64,000 nucleotides of DNA, taken from the NCBI GenBank assembly GCA_015056545.1, contig SVGE01000001.1:9129-73128 (forward strand), written 5' to 3'. Shown one piece after another: positions 1 to 16,503 of the stretch. The notes beneath the pieces were generated by a model, which saw only the letters and a list, made by a program, of their open reading frames with translations, ran no database searches and was not told the DNA's origin. The position numbers were made by a program, and so were the translations under genes. Within the stretch, counting starts at the first letter, position 1. Each line of letters opens with the position of its first letter. This DNA is from Clostridiales bacterium (GTDB lineage Bacteria; Bacillota; Clostridia; TANB77; SIG350).

Positions 1-71
1 AATATTGCTATTTTGAGTTATTTAATATATTATTTTTTTGAAAAAAGTATAGAACTAAGAGGTGAGATAGT

Positions 72-2105
72 ATGAAAAGAAAAAGTATATATTTTTTCTC
101 TATAATATTATTATTAATATCTAGTATTGTATGTATTGCTAGTTCAGTAACATATTACAAAGGTGAGGTAATATTATTAGAAAAAGGAGAAAATATTGAA
201 ATTTTATCTAATGAAATATTAATTGATACAACTAATTCAAATATATCTAATGAAATATTATTAAAAAACATTGGAAATGATAAGGTTAAAACAAAGGTCA
301 ATATACAATTAGAAGATAATGTTTTATCTACAAAGATACATAATTTAATAATTAAAACAAATGAAAATATAATTCAATATGAAAAAAATGAAAATGGAAT
401 ATATTCATTTGATATAGAAATACCTAAAAATGAGGGTAAAAAAATAGAAATAAATTATGTAACAGATAATGATTTAGCAGATGCAAAAGTAATAAAATAT
501 AGTTTAGATAATCTGCAATTAGGAGATAAAAAAATTGGTAAGGTAAAGGTAGATATAAAACTTAATGAAATTGATATACCTTTAACAAAAGCCATTTACC
601 CAGGTCATTATACAGTAGATTTTGAAACCAATACTGTAACAGTAGAGTATTATAATTTTAAAATTAATAATTTAACAAAAGATATTATTCTTGAAAAAGA
701 TACATTAAAAGATTTATTAAAAAATTCAGAGCAGCTAGAAATAGTTGACAAAAATATAACTAGTAATATTGAGTATTGGATGAAAAACGGTATTGAAGTG
801 GATTATAAAAACATTGAATACATTAACTCTAGTTTAATATATGAACAATTATTTAAACCAAAAGATTATAAAGAAAAGTATTGGAATGTAAATACACCAT
901 ATAATGAATTATTTAATTTTTATCTTAACAAACAATTAATAAAGGATGGAAAACAAGAGTATGTTGAAGATTCATACTACTATAATGAAGATATTAGACC
1001 AGTATATTATTTATATACAAAAGAACTTGTAAAAAAATATGCATTAGATGAAACAAATTCATATTTTACAGATATGTATGGAAAAAATATTTGTATAGCT
1101 TATGATGTTTTACCATTACAAGAAGAATTGTATATTTATAAAAATCATACAATGGAAGTGTATAATGAAGAATATGACGAATATTACTGTGATTATTATG
1201 TTGAAATAGAAAATAAGAGTCAAGAAGAGATTTTAAGAACAAAAGAATATACAAATGAATTATATCCTTATTCAGGAGAAAAACGTATTTTTGTTGGAAT
1301 AGATATAAATGGTAATTTTATAGATTGCACTCTTGAAGAAAAAATAGAGTATGTAAATATGATTAATGCAGATATGTTTATTATACAAAGATTGTATAAT
1401 GAAGATTTAGGTGAAGCAAATTTATATACAAACAATTTAGAGGATGGAACTCAAATTCAAATGAAATATTATAATCCACCATATGTAGGATATTATGTTG
1501 AAGAAAACGAAGAAATGGTAAGAGCATTCTATGCTATTCATTATGATATTATTTCTAAAGAAGAATTTTTAGATAGAGAATGGCTTGTAGAGGAATATAT
1601 AACATATGAAAATTATGTCGAGCAAGAAACTAATGAAAGGGAAGAATCATATAGAAATTCTGTAAAAAGAATTGATGATTCAAATTTAAGTTTAGCGCAA
1701 ATACCAACTTTCATATTATATAGGGGATATATATATGAAAATGAAGGGAAAAAATTTGTTAATTTTCAATTACCATATAATTCATATGGTACTGGAATAT
1801 CTACTACAAATCAGGTGTTAGAGACTAAAAGAGCACAAGAATTAATAAAGTCAAATAGAGAAAATAATAAAAATATAAAAAAAGAAATAGAAAATGAAAT
1901 AGCAAGTATAATCTTAACACAAGATAAAGTATATAAAAATAATACAGAAATTCATGAAAATAATGAGAATAACAATAATTTGCAACATTATATATTTTTA
2001 TCTGTAATTACTTTAGGAATTATAATATGTATAGTTATTTTAATTGTAAAAGGTATAAGAAGTACAAAAAATAAAGGAGGAAATAATAATGGAGAAGAAA
2101 AATAA
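72..2105 (+). CDS. Large secreted or surface-anchored hypothetical protein (677 aa) with an N-terminal signal/TM segment and a C-terminal TM anchor; rich in Asn, Tyr and Glu
   Basis: Long ORF with good RBS (agaggtga); hydrophobic N-terminus and a C-terminal hydrophobic stretch followed by basic residues; no recognisable catalytic motif. Confidence 0.5.
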   Translation: MKRKSIYFFSIILLLISSIVCIASSVTYYKGEVILLEKGENIEILSNEILIDTTNSNISNEILLKNIGNDKVKTKVNIQLEDNVLSTKIHNLIIKTNENIIQYEKNENGIYSFDIEIPKNEGKKIEINYVTDNDLADAKVIKYSLDNLQLGDKKIGKVKVDIKLNEIDIPLTKAIYPGHYTVDFETNTVTVEYYNFKINNLTKDIILEKDTLKDLLKNSEQLEIVDKNITSNIEYWMKNGIEVDYKNIEYINSSLIYEQLFKPKDYKEKYWNVNTPYNELFNFYLNKQLIKDGKQEYVEDSYYYNEDIRPVYYLYTKELVKKYALDETNSYFTDMYGKNICIAYDVLPLQEELYIYKNHTMEVYNEEYDEYYCDYYVEIENKSQEEILRTKEYTNELYPYSGEKRIFVGIDINGNFIDCTLEEKIEYVNMINADMFIIQRLYNEDLGEANLYTNNLEDGTQIQMKYYNPPYVGYYVEENEEMVRAFYAIHYDIISKEEFLDREWLVEEYITYENYVEQETNEREESYRNSVKRIDDSNLSLAQIPTFILYRGYIYENEGKKFVNFQLPYNSYGTGISTTNQVLETKRAQELIKSNRENNKNIKKEIENEIASIILTQDKVYKNNTEIHENNENNNNLQHYIFLSVITLGIIICIVILIVKGIRSTKNKGGNNNGEEK

Positions 2106-3066
2106 AATGAATTTATCTACTAAGATAGTAATTTGTATATTAGTTATTTTAATAATTATGGGTGGAGTATATATAGGATTTTTTATGAATAAAGAGAATA
2201 ATAAGATTGTAAATCCTTCAAATGATCCTTCAAATGTAGTTAATAATGAAGAAGGAAAAGGTATAAAACTTGATTTTACAAAAGAAACATATCCAAAAAT
2301 TGATGGTGCTACAGCAATGAGACCAATGTCAGTTGAAATTGCAAAATCAGTTTTAAATATGACAGATTTAGAGGCAGAAGAATTTATTATTCATAATACA
2401 ACAGCAAAAGCATATGAAAATTTAATAAATAAAACAGCTGATTTAATATTTGTATCTGAGCCTTCTGATGGTATTTTAAATGATGCAAAACAAGCTGGTG
2501 TTGAATTTGAAATGGTTGGTATAGGTAGAGATGGATTTGTCTTTATAATAAATCAAGAAAATCCTGTTGAATCTTTAACTATTGAGCAAATACAAAATAT
2601 ATATACTGGTAAAATAACTAATTGGAGAGAAGTTGGTGGTGTGGATGCTAAAATACTAGCTTATCAAAGAGAGCCTAATTCAGGAAGCCAAAACTTAATG
2701 GAAAAAATGGTTATGAAGGATTTAGAATTTGTAGAAGCTCCAACTGAATTAGTTATCGAAAGTATGGCAGGTTTAGTAGATAGAGTTGCTTCATATAATA
2801 ATAGTAAAAACTCAATTGGGTATTCAATTTATCTTTATGCAAAAGAACAATATGTTAAAGATAATATAAAATTTTTATCAATAAATGGTGTATATCCAAC
2901 AGATGATACAATAGCAGATGGAACATATCCACTTTCAAAAATTGTATATGCTATATATAGAAAAGATGAACCACAAGATAGCAATGTTCGTAAATTAGTA
3001 GAGTGGTTAAAAACTGAAGAAGGTCAAAAAACTGTTATTGCAGGAGGATATACAGGAATAAAATAA
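2089..3066 (+). CDS. PstS-like phosphate-binding protein (periplasmic binding protein superfamily), membrane-anchored, orphan (no pstCAB nearby)
   Basis: N-terminal TM segment; fold-typical motifs (DGATAMRP, REPNSGSQ); start overlaps the upstream gene's end. Confidence 0.5.
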   Translation: MEKKNKMNLSTKIVICILVILIIMGGVYIGFFMNKENNKIVNPSNDPSNVVNNEEGKGIKLDFTKETYPKIDGATAMRPMSVEIAKSVLNMTDLEAEEFIIHNTTAKAYENLINKTADLIFVSEPSDGILNDAKQAGVEFEMVGIGRDGFVFIINQENPVESLTIEQIQNIYTGKITNWREVGGVDAKILAYQREPNSGSQNLMEKMVMKDLEFVEAPTELVIESMAGLVDRVASYNNSKNSIGYSIYLYAKEQYVKDNIKFLSINGVYPTDDTIADGTYPLSKIVYAIYRKDEPQDSNVRKLVEWLKTEEGQKTVIAGGYTGIK

Positions 3067-3179
3067 AATATATAAAACTATTGTATAACTAAAAAGATTA
3101 ATATATAATATTAATGAAACAAAAGAAAATCTACCAGATGGTAGATTTTTTATATAATATTATTAAAATAGGGAGAATT

Positions 3180-5033
3180 ATGAATATATTAAATAAGATA
3201 AATAAATCAGAAGATATTAAGAAACTAAATAATAAAGAAAAAGGAATATTGGCAAAAGAAATAAGAGAATTAATTTTGGATGTTGTTTCCAAAAATGGTG
3301 GTCATTTAGCTTCTAATTTAGGTGTTGTAGAATTAACTATTGCTCTTCATTCTGTTTTTAATTTTCCACAAGATAAAATTGTATGGGATGTAGGTCATCA
3401 ATCATATGTACATAAAATATTAACAGGAAGAAAAGATAGAATATATACAATAAGAAAAATAAATGGATTATCTGGTTTTCCAAAAACAAATGAATCAGAA
3501 TATGATGTTTTTAATACTGGGCATAGTTCAACTTCAATATCTGCATCATTAGGTATTGCTAGAGCAAATAAACTTATGGGAAACTTAAATCATACAATAG
3601 CAGTAATAGGTGATGGTGCACTAACAGGTGGTATGGCATTGGAAGCATTAAATGATGCTGGAAACAGCAATGCTAATATAACAGTTATATTAAATGATAA
3701 TGAAATGAGTATATCTAAAAATATAGGTGGAATGAATAATTTACTAAATCTTTTAAGAACAAGAAAGTTATATACAAAATCTAATTATGTAATTAAAAAC
3801 TTGTTAAGTAAAATACCTATAATTGGACCAAGATTAGTTGTATTTTTTAGAAGAGTTAAAAGAATGTTTAAACAATTATTACTTAATACTATGTATTTTG
3901 AAGATATAGGATTTACATATTTAGGACCTGTTGATGGTCATGATATTAAAAAACTAGAAAATATATTAAAAGAAAGTAAAAATATATCTGGCCCTGTTTT
4001 AATTCATGTTAAGACAGTAAAAGGAAAAGGATATGAATTTGCAGAAAAATATCCAGATAAATTTCATAGTATTTCACCATTTAATATTGAGACAGGCGAG
4101 AAGAAACAAAATTGGGGAAAAGACTATTCAAAAGTTTTTGGTGATACATTAACTCACTTAGCAGATAAAAATGAAAAAATAGTGGCAATAACCGCTTCTA
4201 TGTGCCAAGGTACAGGATTATATGAGTTTTCAAAAAAATATCCAGAACGTTTTTTTGATATTGGAATAGCAGAGCAACATGCATTAACACTTGCTTCAGG
4301 TATGGCTTCACAAGGCTATATTCCTGTTGTTCCAATATATTCTTCTTTTTTGCAAAGAGGATTCGACCAAGTTATTCATGATATCTGTATGAATAATATT
4401 CCTGTTATTATTGGAATAGATAGAGCTGGGTTAGTTGGTAATGATGGAGAAACACATCAAGGTATTTTTGACTTGTCTTTTTTAAATCTTATACCAAATT
4501 TAAATATATTGTCACCTAAAAATTTTAAAGAGTTAGAATTAATGCTCGAATTTGCAACAAAATTAAATAAGCCTATTGCAATAAGATATCCTAGAGGAAA
4601 AGAAAAATCTTTATTTAATAAAAATGATGAAATTGAGTTAGGAAAAGCAGAAATAATTCAAGAAGGAAAAGATGTATGTATTTTTGCTATCGGAAAAATG
4701 GTAGAAAAAGCATATGAAGTAGCCCAAATTTTAAATAAAGAAAATATACAAACAGAAGTTATTAATATGAGATTTTTAAAACCAATTGATGAAGATATTA
4801 TTTTGAAAAATAAAGACAAATTATTAGTTACAATTGAAGATAACACTTTAAAAGGAGGACTTTATACAGAAGTAATAAATGTTTTAAATAAAAATAATAT
4901 TTTAAAAAAAGTATATGGTTTTGGATATAATGATAAATTTATTGAACATGGAACAATTGATGAATTAGAGAAAAAATATGGTTTAGATAGTGAAAATATA
5001 TCTAGAACAATTAAAAAATGGATTTTAAATTAA
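3180..5033 (+). CDS. dxs: 1-deoxy-D-xylulose-5-phosphate synthase
   Basis: Motifs GHLASNLGVVELTIALH and DVGHQSYVHKILTGR, plus TPP-binding and transketolase C-terminal domains; start moved to the internal ATG (MNILNK) preceded by agggag. Confidence 0.9.
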   Translation: MNILNKINKSEDIKKLNNKEKGILAKEIRELILDVVSKNGGHLASNLGVVELTIALHSVFNFPQDKIVWDVGHQSYVHKILTGRKDRIYTIRKINGLSGFPKTNESEYDVFNTGHSSTSISASLGIARANKLMGNLNHTIAVIGDGALTGGMALEALNDAGNSNANITVILNDNEMSISKNIGGMNNLLNLLRTRKLYTKSNYVIKNLLSKIPIIGPRLVVFFRRVKRMFKQLLLNTMYFEDIGFTYLGPVDGHDIKKLENILKESKNISGPVLIHVKTVKGKGYEFAEKYPDKFHSISPFNIETGEKKQNWGKDYSKVFGDTLTHLADKNEKIVAITASMCQGTGLYEFSKKYPERFFDIGIAEQHALTLASGMASQGYIPVVPIYSSFLQRGFDQVIHDICMNNIPVIIGIDRAGLVGNDGETHQGIFDLSFLNLIPNLNILSPKNFKELELMLEFATKLNKPIAIRYPRGKEKSLFNKNDEIELGKAEIIQEGKDVCIFAIGKMVEKAYEVAQILNKENIQTEVINMRFLKPIDEDIILKNKDKLLVTIEDNTLKGGLYTEVINVLNKNNILKKVYGFGYNDKFIEHGTIDELEKKYGLDSENISRTIKKWILN

Positions 5034-5122: not shown

Positions 5123-6670
5123 TTGGAGGAATATATGAATAAAAAATATTTTTTTTTAGTTTCAATACTTATATATATTATATTTTTTTCAAATTTATCT
5201 TTAGCTACTGATTATGATAATCATTGGGCATCAATAACCATAAATAACTTAATAGATAAAGGAATTATTCAAGGTGATGGATATGGTAATATAAATCCTG
5301 ATAATGATTTAACTAGAGCTGAATTTGTAAAAATGATAAATAAAGTAATGAATTATTCTGAATTAACAGGGAAACAATTTAAAGATGTATATGATAATGA
5401 ATGGTATGCAAAAGAATTTCTTATTGCAAAAAATATTGGATATATTCAAGGTGATGAAAACGGAAATGTTAATCCTAATAATAATATAACTAGAGCGGAA
5501 GCATCTGTAGTTTTATCGAGAGTTTTACTTATTACAAGTGATAATAAGTTATTATTTGAAGATGAAAATGAAATACCTAAGTGGGCATATGAATCAATTT
5601 CTGGTTTAGTAGAAGAAAAAATATTAAAGGGATATACTGATAATACATTTGGAGCAAATAATAATATAACCAGAGCTGAAGGTATGACATTAATTTCAAG
5701 AATTATTGAATTTAAAGAAAAAAACGATAAATATATTGTTGTAAAAACGAAAGATTTCTATGATAATAATATTATTTTTAGTGTTAGAAAAGAAAAAGAT
5801 AAATACATTCTTGAAAATGAAAATATAAAAATTTATGCAATAGATTTGAATAATAATAATGAATTTGATTACCAATTTAATAATAAACAATATCTTTATT
5901 CTTTAGATAATTTGTGGGATAGCAAACTAAATATTGGGGAAAATATATATCAAGATAGACTAGCCAAGATGGCTGTAACAACATATTATAATGCAATAAG
6001 AATAGATAATTTTTATAAAAATATTTTGAAAGATAATAACAATAATAAGTATAATATTTGTTTAATTATAAATAATGATAATTATAGTAATATAACAAGT
6101 ACATATACTGAGCATAATACAATTTTATTAGGCAATTATTCTGAGTCAAATAATTGTATGGGGATACTAATGGATGTATTAGGACATGAAATGACACATA
6201 TAGTAGGAGAAAATATACATTCTCTTAAATATTCAGGAGAGTCTGGTACATTAGAAGAAGCATATTCAGATATATTGGCAGAATTAATTGAAATGTATTA
6301 TCAAGAAAATGTTGATACTAAATGGGTTATTGGAAATAAAAAAGACTATGTAATTAGATCATTTGAAGATCCTAATTCTTTTTATGATCCTTGTATAGTA
6401 AATGATAAATATTATAATGATAAATTTTTGGATCCGCATTTGAATATGACTATATTAACACATGTGGCGTATTTAATGTACAATAATGGAATTAATGATG
6501 AAATTAAGTTAGCGAAATTATGGTATAATTCTATGTATTATTTAAAACCAACATCTGGATTTGAAGAATGTAGAAATGCTATTTTAGAAGCGGCAAAAGA
6601 TATGAACATGACCCAAAATGAAATTTATATAATTGAAAATTCATTTGATACTGTTGGAATTACAGATTAG
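5123..6670 (+). CDS. S-layer-homology (SLH) domain protein with a C-terminal thermolysin-like (M4-type) zinc metallopeptidase motif
   Basis: Signal peptide, then three SLH-like repeats (…GYGNINPDNDLTRAEFVKMINKV, …GNVNPNNNITRAEASVVLSRV, …NNNITRAEGMTLISRI). C-terminal HEMTH (HExxH) with a downstream EEAYSD, matching thermolysin HELTH…NEAISD. Confidence 0.6.
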   Translation: MEEYMNKKYFFLVSILIYIIFFSNLSLATDYDNHWASITINNLIDKGIIQGDGYGNINPDNDLTRAEFVKMINKVMNYSELTGKQFKDVYDNEWYAKEFLIAKNIGYIQGDENGNVNPNNNITRAEASVVLSRVLLITSDNKLLFEDENEIPKWAYESISGLVEEKILKGYTDNTFGANNNITRAEGMTLISRIIEFKEKNDKYIVVKTKDFYDNNIIFSVRKEKDKYILENENIKIYAIDLNNNNEFDYQFNNKQYLYSLDNLWDSKLNIGENIYQDRLAKMAVTTYYNAIRIDNFYKNILKDNNNNKYNICLIINNDNYSNITSTYTEHNTILLGNYSESNNCMGILMDVLGHEMTHIVGENIHSLKYSGESGTLEEAYSDILAELIEMYYQENVDTKWVIGNKKDYVIRSFEDPNSFYDPCIVNDKYYNDKFLDPHLNMTILTHVAYLMYNNGINDEIKLAKLWYNSMYYLKPTSGFEECRNAILEAAKDMNMTQNEIYIIENSFDTVGITD

Positions 6671-6677
6671 TAATATA

Positions 6678-6712
6678 AAAGCATATCACTAAATAAGGTG
6701 ATATGCTTTTTA
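6678..6712. terminator. Bidirectional rho-independent terminator (aaagcatatcac / gtgatatgcttt)
   Basis: 12-bp perfect stem with an 8-nt loop, flanked by A and T runs; lies between convergent genes. Confidence 0.6.
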
Positions 6713-6715
6713 AAA

Positions 6716-7582
6716 TTATATTAAGACTCTGTCACTTATATATATATTAAATTCTATAATGTCTAAGTCTTTTAAATCTTCTTCCTCTAAATCAAAAAAC
6801 TTAAACCAATCACTACTGTCTTTTTCATCTTCAAATACAATTGCATTAATTTGATTTAGAACTGGTTTTCTTTGTTTATTACATAATACTGCAACATATT
6901 CAGTTTCTGTTGAACCTAGCCGGTAAGCTAATTTTTTATCTTTACAATAATTTTCAATATATTCAAGATCTCCAGCTTTTTCTTCAAGAAATGCGTTGCA
7001 TATGACATATGTTCCTTCTGGATACATTGAATTAAAAATCTCAATAAAAAATTCACCGATGTTGTTTATAATACTATTTGAAGTTACCTCTTTAGCAATA
7101 CTATAAAATATTATTCCAAATATGAAACGTATTGAAACAATAAATAAAATAGATTACAGGAAGTTTATTTTAGGTAAATTTAATACAAATATGTTTGGTA
7201 TTGCGTAATTCCATAATATAATAAAAGGAATAGAGGCAAACAGATAAAGAAATATTTTCAATATAATATTTAACCATAAATTATATTTTAGATATCTTAA
7301 AGTATTATATCTTCTTTCATTATCTTTTAATATATCTATATGGAAAAAACAAAATGTTGAAAATATAGATAATGTAGCTAAAGAAGAAGATAAAATATCT
7401 ATTTTTGCAATTCCTAAAACTGGTGCAATGCCGAGATTCCATAATGCAAAAAATATTAAACCTAAAACACCTGCAACGAATATAACATACATAAATATCA
7501 AAGAGATTAATCCATATAACATTCCATAAATTTCGTGTATGTTTTCTTTTATTAATTTAAATTTCATTATATAACCCTCCAA
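6716..7582 (-). pseudogene. Polytopic membrane protein gene interrupted by a single in-frame TAA (142-aa N-terminal ORF plus 42 open codons plus 103-aa C-terminal ORF, all in one frame)
   Basis: ORFs 7154..7582 and 6716..7027 share one frame (126 nt between them, no stop apart from the TAA at 7154-7156). The 103-aa ORF has no plausible RBS. The open spacer encodes another hydrophobic segment. Confidence 0.45.
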
Positions 7583-12411: not shown

Positions 12412-12954
12412 ATGCAAATAGAACTAGATATACTAAATTTTATACAAAAAAACATGTATTATGATATATTAACTACAATATTAAGAATTATTTCATATAT
12501 GGGCAATATAGGCTTTATTTGGATAATAATTGCAATATTATTCATATTGATTAAAAAATATAGGAAAATTGGAATTACTATGTGCATAGGACTAATATTG
12601 TGTTTAATTATTGGAAATGGAATTTTGAAGCCTTTAATTGCACGTACAAGGCCATATGATTTAGAGATAAATAGCAATATGCAAATCCAAATAGAAAAAC
12701 CAAATGATTATTCATTTCCATCTGGTCATACATTAGCAGCTTTTACAAGTGCATTAATTATATTATTATATAACAAAAAAATTGGAATATTTGCATTAAT
12801 ACTAGCAACACTTATGGCATTTTCAAGACTATATTTTTATGTACATTTTCCAACAGATGTATTAGGTGGAATTATATTTGGAATATTATTTGCATTTATT
12901 TCTAAGTGGATAGTTAAAAGATATATAGATAATGATAATAAGTATAGAAATTAA
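12412..12954 (+). CDS. PAP2-family phosphatase (undecaprenyl-diphosphate/phosphatidylglycerophosphate phosphatase-like)
   Basis: KxxxxxxRP, PSGHT and SRxxxxxHxxxD motifs (PSGHTLAAF, SRLYFYVHFPTDVLGG). Confidence 0.8.
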   Translation: MQIELDILNFIQKNMYYDILTTILRIISYMGNIGFIWIIIAILFILIKKYRKIGITMCIGLILCLIIGNGILKPLIARTRPYDLEINSNMQIQIEKPNDYSFPSGHTLAAFTSALIILLYNKKIGIFALILATLMAFSRLYFYVHFPTDVLGGIIFGILFAFISKWIVKRYIDNDNKYRN

Positions 12955-12964
12955 TATACAAAAA

Positions 12965-12992
12965 CAGGCTATGAAAACCATAGTCTGTTTTT
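12965..12992 (+). terminator. Rho-independent terminator after the PAP2 gene
   Basis: caggctatg-aaaacc-atagtctg followed by TTTTT. Confidence 0.55.
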
Positions 12993-13069
12993 GATTATTA
13001 ATTAAAGTTATTATTTTACACAATTTTACGTGTTTTGATAATTGGAACTGTATTAATACTTTTTTCATT

Positions 13070-13183
13070 TCAATTTTCAAATTTAGGTAGTGGGTTTCTT
13101 ATATCTGCAATTACAGCATCCAAACCTACATAACATGAAAAAGCAAAAAACAAAAGATATAATGCAATAATTGATATTTTCAT
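13070..13183 (-). CDS. Small hydrophobic peptide (37 aa, MKISIIALYLLFFAFSCYVGLDAVIADIRNPLPKFEN); last gene of the Panacea-domain operon
   Basis: Not in the ORF track (under 60 aa); good RBS aaggag 7 nt upstream of ATG; single predicted TM. Confidence 0.3.
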   Translation of the reverse strand: MKISIIALYLLFFAFSCYVGLDAVIADIRNPLPKFEN

Positions 13184-13201
13184 AAATAACTCCTTTCGTC
13201 T

Positions 13202-13429
13202 TTATACTTCATATTTTGGACAACCGTTTTCCTTATAATATGTAATCATTTCTGTTAAATTACAATCTTCTTGTTTAGTAAAAGAATATACAATTTTTTT
13301 ACTAATTCTATTAGTTTCTTCTTTTTTTGCATTTTCTTTATATATTGGTAATCTTTTTATAACAAGTATTGTAATAAAAAGGATGATAAAGATAACTATT
13401 ATGATTGATATTAATTCCGGTATATTCAT
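13202..13429 (-). CDS. Small membrane protein (about 75 aa from the internal ATG; N-terminal TM plus charged tail); candidate toxin partner
   Basis: RBS aagagg 8 nt before ATG at 13429 (ORF track start 13438 is GTG); lies immediately after the upstream DUF4065 gene. Confidence 0.4.
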   Translation of the reverse strand: MNIPELISIIIVIFIILFITILVIKRLPIYKENAKKEETNRISKKIVYSFTKQEDCNLTEMITYYKENGCPKYEV

Positions 13430-13430
13430 A

Positions 13431-13979
13431 TTATTCACCTCTTTTTGAAAATAAATACTCTACTAACTCATTAGCTTTTTCAAAATCAGATAAATGTAAT
13501 TTGCTAATTTTTTCAAGATTGATTGATGTATCGTTTTCAATTAAATTATCTATTTCCATTATTTTTGTAAGAGTAATTAAATCACACATAGAGTAGGAAC
13601 CAAATTTTTGGAATATTTCTTGAATTCTTAAACATATTTCTTTAGATGGATAATCACAACATTTATACTTTTGTGGAATATAACAGTAAGTATAAATTGG
13701 AATGTAGTTTATAGGTTGCTTATCATCAACATCCTTCAATATGTAGTATACATGTGTATCAATAAAAGATGTAAGGGAATCTATAGTTGTTCCGTTAGTA
13801 TGAATTATGTAGATTTTTTCTTCAAAAAGTTTTTTACCTTCACGAGCATATGAAAATGCTAAAATAGATAATAGCATTCCTAGTTTTCTACTTGAACAAG
13901 AATATTTTTTGTTTGTCCGATAAAAGAGTTCGATAAGATATTTCGTTATGTCTTTAAAACTTGCATGTAACTTTTCCAT
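13431..13979 (-). CDS. DUF4065 / Panacea-domain protein (PanA-like putative antitoxin), copy 2
   Basis: …SSRKLGMLLSILAFSYAREGKKLFEEKIYIIHTNGTTIDSL parallels the Panacea consensus (KLqKLLYyaq…plFde.ieAw.yGPVv.evY) and aligns motif for motif with the 14160..14612 protein; RBS ggaaaggtga. Confidence 0.5.
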   Translation of the reverse strand: MEKLHASFKDITKYLIELFYRTNKKYSCSSRKLGMLLSILAFSYAREGKKLFEEKIYIIHTNGTTIDSLTSFIDTHVYYILKDVDDKQPINYIPIYTYCYIPQKYKCCDYPSKEICLRIQEIFQKFGSYSMCDLITLTKIMEIDNLIENDTSINLEKISKLHLSDFEKANELVEYLFSKRGE

Positions 13980-13984
13980 TTTTT

Positions 13985-14131
13985 TCACCTTTCCTTTTTT
14001 ATTGGTTTTTTAATGTGTACAATAGCTATGATTAGTAATAGTATTAGCAAGAATAAAAAGAAAAATTTATAAAATATGCCAACAGTATTGATAAAATTAG
14101 CTGTTGATTCTAAAATTTCATATGCAATCAT
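13985..14131 (-). CDS. Small hydrophobic peptide (47 aa, MIAYEILESTANFINTVGIFYKFFFLFLLILLLIIAIVHIKKPIKKER)
   Basis: Not in the ORF track; RBS aaggag 8 nt upstream; its stop overlaps the RBS and start of the downstream DUF4065 gene (translational coupling). Confidence 0.35.
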   Translation of the reverse strand: MIAYEILESTANFINTVGIFYKFFFLFLLILLLIIAIVHIKKPIKKER

Positions 14132-14159
14132 TTTTTTACTCCTTTATAAAAAATATATT

Positions 14160-14612
14160 TTACATAAATGCTCCTATTAGAATTGGATATGTTACATATG
14201 GATATTTAGAACTTGCTGATCTTATTGCTAACCTAATGATTTTTTGAATATCTGGTAGCTCATTTAATTCGAAAGAATTTAATTCTCCATACATTCTAAT
14301 AATTCTATCTATACTTTCTTCTTCTCTTTCTAAAAGAAGAATATACGGATTTTCTTTTTCTTTAAATTCAACTAAATTTGAGCGGAAATCTTCATCAACT
14401 TCTTCAATTACAACACCACAATCCCATATATGGATTGGTTCTTTAAACACAATCTTTTTTTTATGTCTAATACAATCTACTTGAATTAAACACAGTAATT
14501 TTTGAAGTTTTTGAGTGTTAATATGAATACCTTTGTCTAAGCATTTATTAACAACATGTTTTCCTATTTCTGAAGCCATACATTTAATCATAAATTTCAT
14601 CCTTTCTATCAA
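14160..14612 (-). CDS. DUF4065 / Panacea-domain protein (PanA-like putative antitoxin), copy 1
   Basis: …GIHINTQKLQKLLCLIQVDCIRHKKKIVFKEPIHIWDCGVVIEEVDEDF matches the Panacea/DUF4065 hallmark (tnlKLQKLLY…plFdepieAWkyGPVvpevY). Confidence 0.55.
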   Translation of the reverse strand: MIERMKFMIKCMASEIGKHVVNKCLDKGIHINTQKLQKLLCLIQVDCIRHKKKIVFKEPIHIWDCGVVIEEVDEDFRSNLVEFKEKENPYILLLEREEESIDRIIRMYGELNSFELNELPDIQKIIRLAIRSASSKYPYVTYPILIGAFM

Positions 14613-14799
14613 TATAGATATAAAATATAAATAATATTAATTTGTTTTATAATATACCATAAAACTAGAATTTTGGCAAGGTTATAAGAAATTTAATTAA
14701 AATGTAAAAAATAAATTTTTACAAAACTGACTGTTCAGTCTAATGATTTTTTATTTTATTTAGTTATATAATATAAATGATAAATTTAGGAGGTTATAT

Positions 14800-16503
14800 A
14801 TGAAGGAATTAAAAGAATATAAAAATATTAGAGAAATTATAAGAGAAACAATTAGGTTATATCCGGATAATAAAGCATTTATAATAAAAAATAAAGATAT
14901 GAAAACATACACAAATATTACATACAAACAATTAGGTGAAGAAATAAATCAATTAGGTACTGCATTAATTAAAATTGGTTTTAAAAATAAAAAAATAGCA
15001 GTTATAGGTAAAAATAGATATGAATGGGCATTATCATACTATGCTGTTGTAAATGGAGTAGGGTGTGTTGTTCCACTAGATAAAGGACTTCCACAAGCAG
15101 AGATTGAATCTTCAATTGAAAGAAGCAGGGCAGATTTAATTATATGTGAAGAATCATATCTAGAAATGATAAATGAAATATATGAAAAAGGAAATACAAA
15201 ATTATCTTGTATAGTATGTATGAATGATACAAGTGAAGATAAAATTCATATAAATTTATCTACATTATTGCAAATAGGAAAAAAAGAATTAGAAAATAAT
15301 AATAGAGAATATATTGATACTGAGATAGACGATGATGCTACTAGTATATTATTATTTACATCTGGAACTACTTCATTAGCAAAAGCAGTTGAATTATCTC
15401 ATAGAAATATTGCAACTAATGTAACTGCACTTCATGAAAAAGAAAATATTTATCCAACAGATGTAAATATGGCATTTTTACCATTTCATCATACATTTGG
15501 TTCAACAGGATTATTATTTTTTGTAAGTATAGGTGCATGTACAGTATTTTGTGATGGATTAAGACATGTTCAAAATAATTTAAAAGAATATAAAGTTTCT
15601 GTATTTTTCTGTGTTCCTCTAATTATTGAGGCTATGCATAAAAAGATAATGGCAGAAGTAGATAAAAAGGGAATGACTAAAAAAGTTAAATTAGGTAAAA
15701 AACTTTGCAAAATATTATTAAAATTTGGAATAGATATACGTAGAAAAGTATTTAAAGAAATAATAGATAATTTAGGTGGAAATTTAAGATTTGTAATAAG
15801 TGGTGCAGCAGCAATAGATCCACAAGTTGCAGTAGATTTCAATGATTTTGGAATACTTACAGTACAAGGTTATGGTTTAACAGAAACATCACCAGTATTA
15901 ACAGCTGAAAACGAATATACACTTAGAAAAGGCTCTATAGGTAAACCATTATATAATGTCGAAATAAAAATAGATAATCCTAATGAAAATGGTATAGGCG
16001 AAATTATTGCAAAAGGTCCAAATGTTATGAAAGGTTATTATGAAAATGAAGAAGCAACAAATGAAGTATTAATTGATGGATGGTTCCATACAGGTGATTT
16101 AGGGTATATGGATAAAGATGGATATATATATATTTCAGGTAGAAAGAAGAATGTTATTGTACTTAAAAATGGTAAAAATATTTATCCAGAAGAATTAGAA
16201 ATAGTTGTAGCAAATCTTCCATATGTAGCTGAAAATATGGTATTTGGAATTCCAAAAGATGATGACTTATTATTAGGAGTAAAAATTGTATATAATAAAG
16301 ATTATGTTGAAAAAGAATATCCTGGAATGTCTAATGAAGATGAACTAAAACAAAAAATTTGGGAAGATATTAAAGAAATTAATAAAGGATTACCAACTTA
16401 CAAACATATTAAACAGTTAATTATTACAACAGAACCTATGATTAAAACAACTACAAATAAAGTTAAAAGAAATGAAGAAATTAAATTAATATTAAGTAAA
16501 TAA
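14800..16503 (+). CDS. AMP-dependent synthetase/ligase (long-chain fatty-acid--CoA ligase-like)
   Basis: LLFTSGTTSLAKAVELSH (AMP-binding box), GYGLTETS, GWFHTGDLGYMDKDGYIYISGRKKNVIVLKNGKNIYPEELE. Confidence 0.85.
   Translation: MKELKEYKNIREIIRETIRLYPDNKAFIIKNKDMKTYTNITYKQLGEEINQLGTALIKIGFKNKKIAVIGKNRYEWALSYYAVVNGVGCVVPLDKGLPQAEIESSIERSRADLIICEESYLEMINEIYEKGNTKLSCIVCMNDTSEDKIHINLSTLLQIGKKELENNNREYIDTEIDDDATSILLFTSGTTSLAKAVELSHRNIATNVTALHEKENIYPTDVNMAFLPFHHTFGSTGLLFFVSIGACTVFCDGLRHVQNNLKEYKVSVFFCVPLIIEAMHKKIMAEVDKKGMTKKVKLGKKLCKILLKFGIDIRRKVFKEIIDNLGGNLRFVISGAAAIDPQVAVDFNDFGILTVQGYGLTETSPVLTAENEYTLRKGSIGKPLYNVEIKIDNPNENGIGEIIAKGPNVMKGYYENEEATNEVLIDGWFHTGDLGYMDKDGYIYISGRKKNVIVLKNGKNIYPEELEIVVANLPYVAENMVFGIPKDDDLLLGVKIVYNKDYVEKEYPGMSNEDELKQKIWEDIKEINKGLPTYKHIKQLIITTEPMIKTTTNKVKRNEEIKLILSK

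Follow-up and report, generated by a model that had tools for sequence, protein, structure and literature searches.

Two diverged Panacea-type proteins and three single-pass membrane peptides in a Clostridiales genome: a candidate PanA/PanT-type cassette without the customary toxins

Can the Panacea antitoxin domain give up the large membrane toxins with which it usually travels and take on minimal single-pass peptides in their place? This question is raised by a locus of five genes, A to E, in a 64,000-nucleotide (nt) stretch of contig SVGE01000001.1 from a Clostridiales bacterium (assembly GCA_015056545.1; the whole stretch is called the window hereafter), where two old Panacea paralogues stand together, the canonical toxins are absent and lineage-specific mini-proteins lie in the toxin slots. 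A first-pass annotation of this DNA had suggested a duplicated membrane-toxin and antitoxin operon, and the pairing of Panacea antitoxins with membrane-acting, small transmembrane (TM) toxins on which it drew is documented in the literature: PanA antitoxins bind directly to toxins of many unrelated kinds and thereby neutralise them, three of their partners (PanT) have been validated as membrane-depolarising, and many of the predicted ones are small TM peptides (PMC8832971). With a probability of roughly one half, we read the locus as a chromosomal, lineage-restricted PanA/PanT-type cassette in which canonical multi-TM toxins have been replaced by single-pass mini-proteins; its unusual character would lie mainly in the absence of the large membrane toxins that are normal to both antitoxin families. 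The genes are as follows.

14160-14591, minus strand: gene A, 143 amino acids (aa) from the ATG backed by a ribosome-binding site (RBS), 150 aa from an upstream TTG
13985-14131, minus strand: gene B, 48-aa single-TM peptide of this species only
13431-13979, minus strand: gene C, 182 aa, predicted member of a divergent Panacea-fold family outside the reach of Pfam
13202-13429, minus strand: gene D, 75 aa, N-terminal TM helix (residues 6-24) and a conserved basic/polar tail of ~50 aa
13070-13183, minus strand: gene E, 37-aa single-TM peptide with the conserved motif ...GL(D/E)AVI.D.RNPLPKF

The identity of gene A is solid: judged by its sequence, it is a genuine standalone Panacea/DUF4065 (PanA-like) protein. 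With PF13274 (SocA_Panacea, DUF4065) it reaches 26.8 bits, above the gathering threshold of 25.7 bits (expect value, E, 1e-5; profile positions 1-105 of 113), it matches phrog_1281 (E 8e-14), most of its 45 homologues are already annotated as PF13274, and its name at NCBI is DUF4065 domain-containing protein (MBE5820980.1). With its ortholog in a syntenic relative of another species (contig L002) it shares 71% identity at a ratio of nonsynonymous to synonymous substitution rates (dN/dS) of 0.28. Profile searches of the PDB with the A and C families have given no relevant matches.

The case of C is more remote. Both larger proteins had been taken for Panacea proteins, which the PF13274 search bears out for A and does not for C, the latter being recovered as a distant homologue instead. 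No match to C has been found in Pfam, NCBIfam or PADLOC, its PHROG match lies at chance level only (E 0.59), and BLASTP detects no similarity between A and C. A word-indexed search has yielded a single relative of C and an exhaustive phmmer search 143 representative clusters; in a profile-profile comparison the C family aligns with the A family at a probability of 92.3% (E 5.6e-7), over RKLGMLLSILAFSYA...GTTI versus QKLQKLLCLIQVDCI...CGVVI, precisely the region in which the first-pass annotation had recognised a hallmark of the domain, and additionally over FGSYS versus YGELN. When a hidden Markov model (HMM) of the C family was run over all open reading frames (ORFs) of the window, A was the sole match (E 6.9e-7). 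Hits to PF13274 have been obtained for 5 of 128 C-family members, all below threshold, with 23.6 bits as the best value against the required 25.7. Since C itself has no hit and the best member of its family falls under the cut-off, C has been filed as a Panacea-fold homologue and not as a member of PF13274. The absent pairwise similarity also excludes that A and C are recent duplicates; they represent two old sister families.

An AlphaFold2 model of C calculated from a 128-sequence alignment reaches a predicted local distance difference test score (pLDDT) of 94.3 and a predicted template modelling score (pTM) of 0.91, and only with this alignment is the model usable, a 2-sequence alignment having given a pLDDT of 36. 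Two helices are followed by short strands ending at G63-T65 and by further helices, so arranged that a central helix and a small sheet bearing the G-containing motif are surrounded by helices, as looked for in a Panacea fold. Because this order of elements corresponds to the published description of Panacea, in which a small sheet with the GPV motif accompanies a conserved central helix, the model ties C to that domain. Taken from sequence family and predicted structure, C would belong, as a remote homologue with the Panacea fold, to a sister family undetected by Pfam. The fold also resembles the C-terminal antitoxin domain of DarG (PDB 7YK3), with 4% sequence identity in the structural alignment; this fold is all that the locus has in common with DarTG, as neither a DarT ADP-ribosyltransferase nor a macrodomain occurs in the five proteins. 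Most database members of the C family (alignment members P0048-P0070) possess poorly conserved N-terminal extensions of ~25-90 aa before the Met that aligns with the start of C, which stem either from wrongly called starts or from a variable additional region, and one member contains an HTH_19 domain.

The signature of Panacea is the GPV motif in strand beta-2, which has been reported to be important for neutralisation (PMC8832971). The corresponding site reads C58-G59-V60-V61 in A, with C, G and V invariant across the A family, and N62-G63-T64-T65 in C, where the family consensus is CGT.

What accompanies these two families elsewhere? Genes of the A family are followed by a protein of 276-332 aa, designated TA, in 7 distinct contexts (L003, L056, L060-64, L075, L076/77, L078), usually with a 1-14-nt overlap, and these contexts take in the next-closest relatives of A (55-56% identity). 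Genes of the C family are followed by a protein of 342-380 aa, designated TC, in 3 of 5 other contexts (L001, L055, L066), the downstream neighbours being different in L067 and L068. The coordinates of the partners are given here.

TA, partner downstream of the A family: L003 4428-5258; L056 3431-4429; L060 476-1321; L076 905-1777; L078 921-1784
TC, partner downstream of the C family: L001 1012-2064; L055 3741-4883; L066 3596-4624

Both partners, for which no Pfam family exists, combine a soluble or coiled-coil N-terminus with 3-4 C-terminal TM helices, an architecture resembling the description of Helicobacter PanT, and they are homologous over a two-TM hairpin (hhalign probability 94%, E 1.4e-7) with the conserved sequence ILGIF ... 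YNLLLLL ... KLSRP. Presumably, they are membrane-depolarising PanT toxins. From the homology of TA and TC, the combinations A/TA and C/TC look like co-diverged paralogous pairs, which supports the relationship of A and C independently of the comparisons above.

Three further contexts may be recorded. In the clade L071-L074 an A-family gene (143 aa, ~50% identical to A) is followed after ~140 nt by a SMODS nucleotidyltransferase gene and an overlapping gene for a SLATT_4 membrane effector (L071 2501-4497), so that this antitoxin family also has another set of partners. In L003 (GCA_965343245.1) the pair of PanA and TA lies directly downstream of a large RHS/YD-shell gene and adjoins dockerin-domain genes (1-3235, 5390-7548). 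A single C-family/TC pair has turned up among the viral contigs, that of L066 (IMGVR_UViG_3300031555_002371), on a 156-kb contig whose metagenome, 3300031555, is the same sample as that of L005, a contig of the window species.

The proposed pairing of A with B and of C with D gives way to the observation that the usual partners of both families are multi-TM proteins of 276-380 aa, which the window lacks; tblastn has detected no remnant of TA or TC in it. All examined A-family relatives at 43-57% identity with readable downstream sequence and a same-strand neighbour carry either TA or SMODS plus SLATT, the window and L002 being the only ones that have neither. L002 is the sole syntenic relative; its flanks are those of the window (89% amino-acid identity for the acyl-CoA ligase, 85% for PAP2), and its cassette consists of A-D-E only, B and C being absent, so that the locus content varies among relatives, as the first-pass annotation had proposed to check. 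The DNA alignment of the two breaks at the stop codon of A and within the last ~17 nt of C, which resemble the A-D spacer and RBS of L002. D stands in the toxin slot in both species, after A with an 18-nt gap in L002 and after C with a 1-nt gap in the window, and this position counts in favour of a PanA/PanT-type cassette. The notion of a module duplicated head to tail, as A-B and C-D with an extra E, finds no support, given the A-D-E order of the relative and the old divergence of A and C. Loci anchored on PAP2 from 48 other species have shown no shared synteny.

The three small proteins possess one strong TM helix each when scored by Kyte-Doolittle windows (B 19-37, 2.94; D 6-24, 3.63; E 3-21, 2.25), in agreement with their earlier description as single-TM peptides. 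In B a polar N-terminus precedes the helix and a basic C-terminus follows it. D has an ortholog in L002 with 52% identity and a dN/dS of 0.36, and a search of 5.8 billion proteins has found no homologue beyond the two species. The ortholog of E in L002 is 61 aa long and 65% identical over the shared 37 aa, with a dN/dS of 0.37 and an invariant RNPLPKF. Past the stop of E the window reads NEKSINTVPIIKTRKIV and L002 NEKIINNLPILKTRKIV, the decisive codon being TGA in the former and CGT in the latter, and the tail is still recognisable in frame in the window:

13016-13069, minus strand: in-frame continuation behind the TGA stop of E, corresponding to the extra length of E in L002

Orthologs and dN/dS values together establish D and E as real genes under purifying selection. 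The values for A, D and E (0.28, 0.36, 0.37) lie above those of the flanking genes (0.11-0.21) and indicate faster evolution; the purifying selection on all three has been counted towards the cassette.

The main rival account of the same facts would be a decayed toxin-antitoxin remnant, in which both TA and TC have disappeared, A and C have been left behind as orphan antitoxins (e.g., against related toxins brought in by phages or plasmids), and B, D and E are not toxins but relics or harmless, lineage-specific membrane proteins of small size. The near-universal presence of TA or SMODS plus SLATT next to relatives of A and the missing remnants in the window fit this account, as do the stop in E where the L002 gene runs on into a still recognisable tail and the fact that B and C are dispensable in L002. 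We consider it a possible, if somewhat unlikely, explanation, since purifying selection acts on A, D and E in a comparison of two species neither of which has TA, all five ORFs have retained strong RBSs and lie close together, and the arrangement is identical in 24 of 24 contigs of the species read (three places shown, the rest listed as similar). A marginal likeness of B to the second TM helix (TM2) of TA would likewise suit a relic: B scores 5.1-5.7 bits with the TA TM2 HMM, a value reached by 22-26 of 2000-3000 full shuffles, 70 of 3000 block shuffles and none of 332 natural TM windows. With a better profile of 7 sequences, however, the score falls to 4.6 bits and is reached by 208 of 3000 block shuffles; hhalign gives a probability of 21%, and composition-corrected tblastn is empty. 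The descent of B from TA TM2 is thus consistent but weak and has been kept as a lead only. A corresponding descent of D from TC has been dropped, as its score, reached by 2-3 of 2000-3000 full shuffles, is reached by 738 of 3000 block shuffles and has no hhalign signal.

That five genes lie on the minus strand between the PAP2 gene and the ligase gene has been confirmed, with slight corrections of size: C, D and E are 182, 75 and 37 aa as first given, B has 48 aa instead of 47, and the 150 aa of A apply only to the TTG start, 143 aa to the ATG. Each of the five ORFs is preceded, 6-9 nt before its start, by a Shine-Dalgarno sequence of the GGAG/AGGA type, so that the good RBS ascribed to every gene is indeed present; that of B is the strong AAAGGAG. 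Stops and starts had been described as overlapping, which is true only of alternative GTG starts; with ATG starts the intergenic gaps are 28 (A-B), 5 (B-C), 1 (C-D) and 18 nt (D-E). The following signals delimit the genes.

14651-14679, minus strand: putative operon promoter, TTGCCA, 17-nt spacer, TATATT with TG extension; 10 of 12 consensus matches plus TG
12959-12993, serving both sides: hairpin terminator, its 15-bp stem lying between an A-run and a T-run, common to the convergent PAP2 gene and the operon

The promoter call stems from a scan for the sigma-70-like consensus and denotes a consensus match alone; an equivalent TTGCTA-N17-TATATT occurs in L002, in which the hairpin has been kept as well. 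This anatomy of promoter, five RBSs, short gaps and terminator counts in favour of the cassette, and A to E would be transcribed as one operon.

Are B and E genes at all? It might be argued that one or both are untranslated chance hydrophobic ORFs and that only A, C and D are genes, as short ORFs rich in Ile, Leu, Phe and Lys are frequent in all frames at 25% GC, B has no ortholog, and both B and E end in TGA, a stop codon used by just 2 of the 48 long ORFs of the window. We regard this as very improbable in view of their near-consensus RBSs at correct spacing, their exact fit into the gaps of the coding strand, and the dN/dS of E together with its invariant RNPLPKF. They had been said to escape standard gene calling, and they are missing from the NCBI annotation; nevertheless, three independent pipelines (ENA, Logan, JGI) have called both. 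The JGI calls on identical DNA read through the TGA codons (window 13985-13987 and 13070-13072) and give 61 aa for B and 55 aa for E (L005 3461-3646 and 4409-4576). A recoding of TGA behind these longer calls has been rejected, as code 11 leaves the long genes uninterrupted and each of TAA, TAG and TGA terminates long ORFs; the readthrough probably reflects a code-4 model picked by the metagenome gene caller for a contig of 25% GC.

How might the cassette work? In the mechanism that we propose, A and C would be two anciently diverged Panacea-fold proteins with antitoxin-like function, TA and TC having gone in this clade and their slots having been taken over by lineage-specific single-pass mini-proteins. 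D, possibly with E and B, would insert into the membrane and be toxic when free. Its occurrence in the toxin slot of both species and its conserved tail make D the most likely toxin candidate of the cassette, with E and B as possible additional effectors or modulators. Positive-inside reasoning places the tail of D (~50 aa) in the cytoplasm, which would offer a Panacea protein something to bind. A standalone Panacea domain has been found to contact the segment before the TM region of its toxin (PMC10440598), and the cytosolic Panacea proteins of the locus could in the same manner bind the juxtamembrane or cytoplasmic segment of D and hold it inactive, until loss or titration of the antitoxin, e.g., upon stress or phage infection, would free the peptide. 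A bolder version, which we advance tentatively and regard as doubtful, would see a Panacea lineage midway through an exchange of partners. Two paralogues, whose relatives elsewhere guard homologous toxins with 3-4 TM helices, would have lost those toxins and would jointly control lineage-born single-helix peptides of 37-75 aa; such a composite module would contain two antitoxins and up to three mini-toxins, peptides of type-I-like character being neutralised by proteins.

Several observations weigh against the PanA/PanT-type cassette. B, without an ortholog, absent from L002 and confined to this species, receives zero comparative support; D is limited to two species, hence no pairing of a PanA with D is conserved across lineages, and its resemblance to TA or TC is not significant. 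In both A and C the GPV signature is degenerate, with G retained and P missing, and no DNA-binding domain has been found in either protein. Scans of the locus with the NCBIfam, PADLOC and Rfam libraries have given no meaningful matches, and no PADLOC model fits. Finally, decay would explain the loss of both families' canonical toxins no less well than partner swapping would.

The comparison with known systems is equally two-sided. As in PanA/PanT (Kurata et al., 2022, PMC8832971; Ernits et al., 2023, PMC10440598), a Panacea gene lies immediately upstream of a gene for a membrane protein, and partner swapping is known there, with small TM peptides among the predicted PanTs. The locus differs in its two diverged Panacea-fold genes with three single-TM ORFs of 37-75 aa and no multi-TM partners, in the position of C below the Pfam threshold, in the degenerate GPV motif and in a partner pairing that is not conserved across species. 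Kurata et al. required a partner gene within 100 nt and a two- or three-gene architecture conserved in at least 2 species. By their pairing rule the A-family/TA and C-family/TC pairs of other genomes qualify; in the locus neighbouring genes are 1-28 nt apart, the gene after A is B in the window and D in L002, C-D occurs in this species only, and five genes exceed the three-gene limit.

Toxins of type I toxin-antitoxin systems are small hydrophobic peptides such as Hok, Fst, TxpA and those of the TisB type. With 37-48 aa and a single hydrophobic helix, B and E match these in size and shape; however, the peptides of the locus are embedded in a protein-coding operon with strong RBSs, the candidate antitoxins are proteins, and there is no Rfam family of antisense or small RNAs, the scan of 12700-15000 on either strand having returned no Rfam family at E<=1. 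The locus does not correspond to the definition of type I, a novel antisense RNA being possible. SocA/SocB, a type VI system in which the Panacea protein acts as a ClpXP adaptor and after whose SocA PF13274 has been named, shares the antitoxin domain family with A, and the locus has no SocB-like gene.

A module for abortive infection or phage defence, in which the Panacea proteins mainly sense a cue from phages and the small membrane peptides act as effectors, would elaborate the cassette rather than replace it. Ernits et al. have hypothesised a sensory role of Panacea and linked membrane-disrupting toxins of toxin-antitoxin systems to phage defence (PMC10440598), one A-family clade adjoins SMODS plus SLATT_4, a conflict-system effector pair, and A matches phage protein families. 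The surroundings, however, argue otherwise. The flanking genes encode housekeeping functions according to Pfam (PAP2, polysaccharide deacetylase, acyl-CoA ligase, LGT) and form no defence island, the GC content equals that of the neighbourhood, and no PADLOC model matches. Among the IMG/VR viral contigs the A-family patterns have brought up no relative, and tblastn of C against the phage record collection has given no match; searches of viral-contig, phage and plasmid collections for A, C and TA have altogether given little or nothing. We therefore hold a dedicated defence function to be unlikely. An origin of the cassette from a mobile element or foreign DNA has also been rejected: the source genome is a low-GC gut or rumen Clostridiales with ~25% GC throughout, from which the cassette does not deviate, and the neighbours identified by Pfam are all housekeeping genes without phage or mobile-element families.

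If toxicity were found for D, B or E and relieved by A or C, we would have in this locus a natural case of the hyperpromiscuous Panacea domain gaining minimal membrane toxins, in which the ancestral partner is known and the sister species offers the simpler A-D-E for comparison. If the peptides are harmless, it would be an ordinary decayed toxin-antitoxin remnant. As a by-product, an unannotated sister family of Panacea and a partner family, TA/TC, have been defined. With toxicity and rescue confirmed, the Panacea superfamily would gain the C family, a widespread clade of ~140 clusters with TC partners that Pfam has missed, and TA/TC could enter the catalogues of toxin-antitoxin and defence systems as a conserved, unannotated family of membrane toxins.

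The remaining features concern the surroundings of the operon. The genes on either side and the palindrome of the divergent intergenic region are listed below.

12412-12954, plus strand: PAP2 gene
14800-16503, plus strand: AMP-binding acyl-CoA ligase gene
14729-14740, no strand: GC-containing palindrome GACTG-TT-CAGTC in the divergent intergenic region

The palindrome had been noted before and is present as described, yet it has not been kept as a palindrome in L002, in which two arm positions are changed without compensation. Its composition makes it unlikely to have arisen by chance: GC-containing 5-2-5 palindromes occur only 3 times in the 64 kb, and in shuffles of the spacer of 19% GC p is ~0.001. 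It lies ~90 nt upstream of the putative start site of the operon, overlaps a weak promoter-like site of the ligase gene on the plus strand, and is part of a ~60-nt block (window 14700-14790) that is near-identical in L002, the adjacent genes having only ~80% DNA identity. The block may contain promoter or operator sequences for the acyl-CoA ligase gene, to which the palindrome may equally be attributed.

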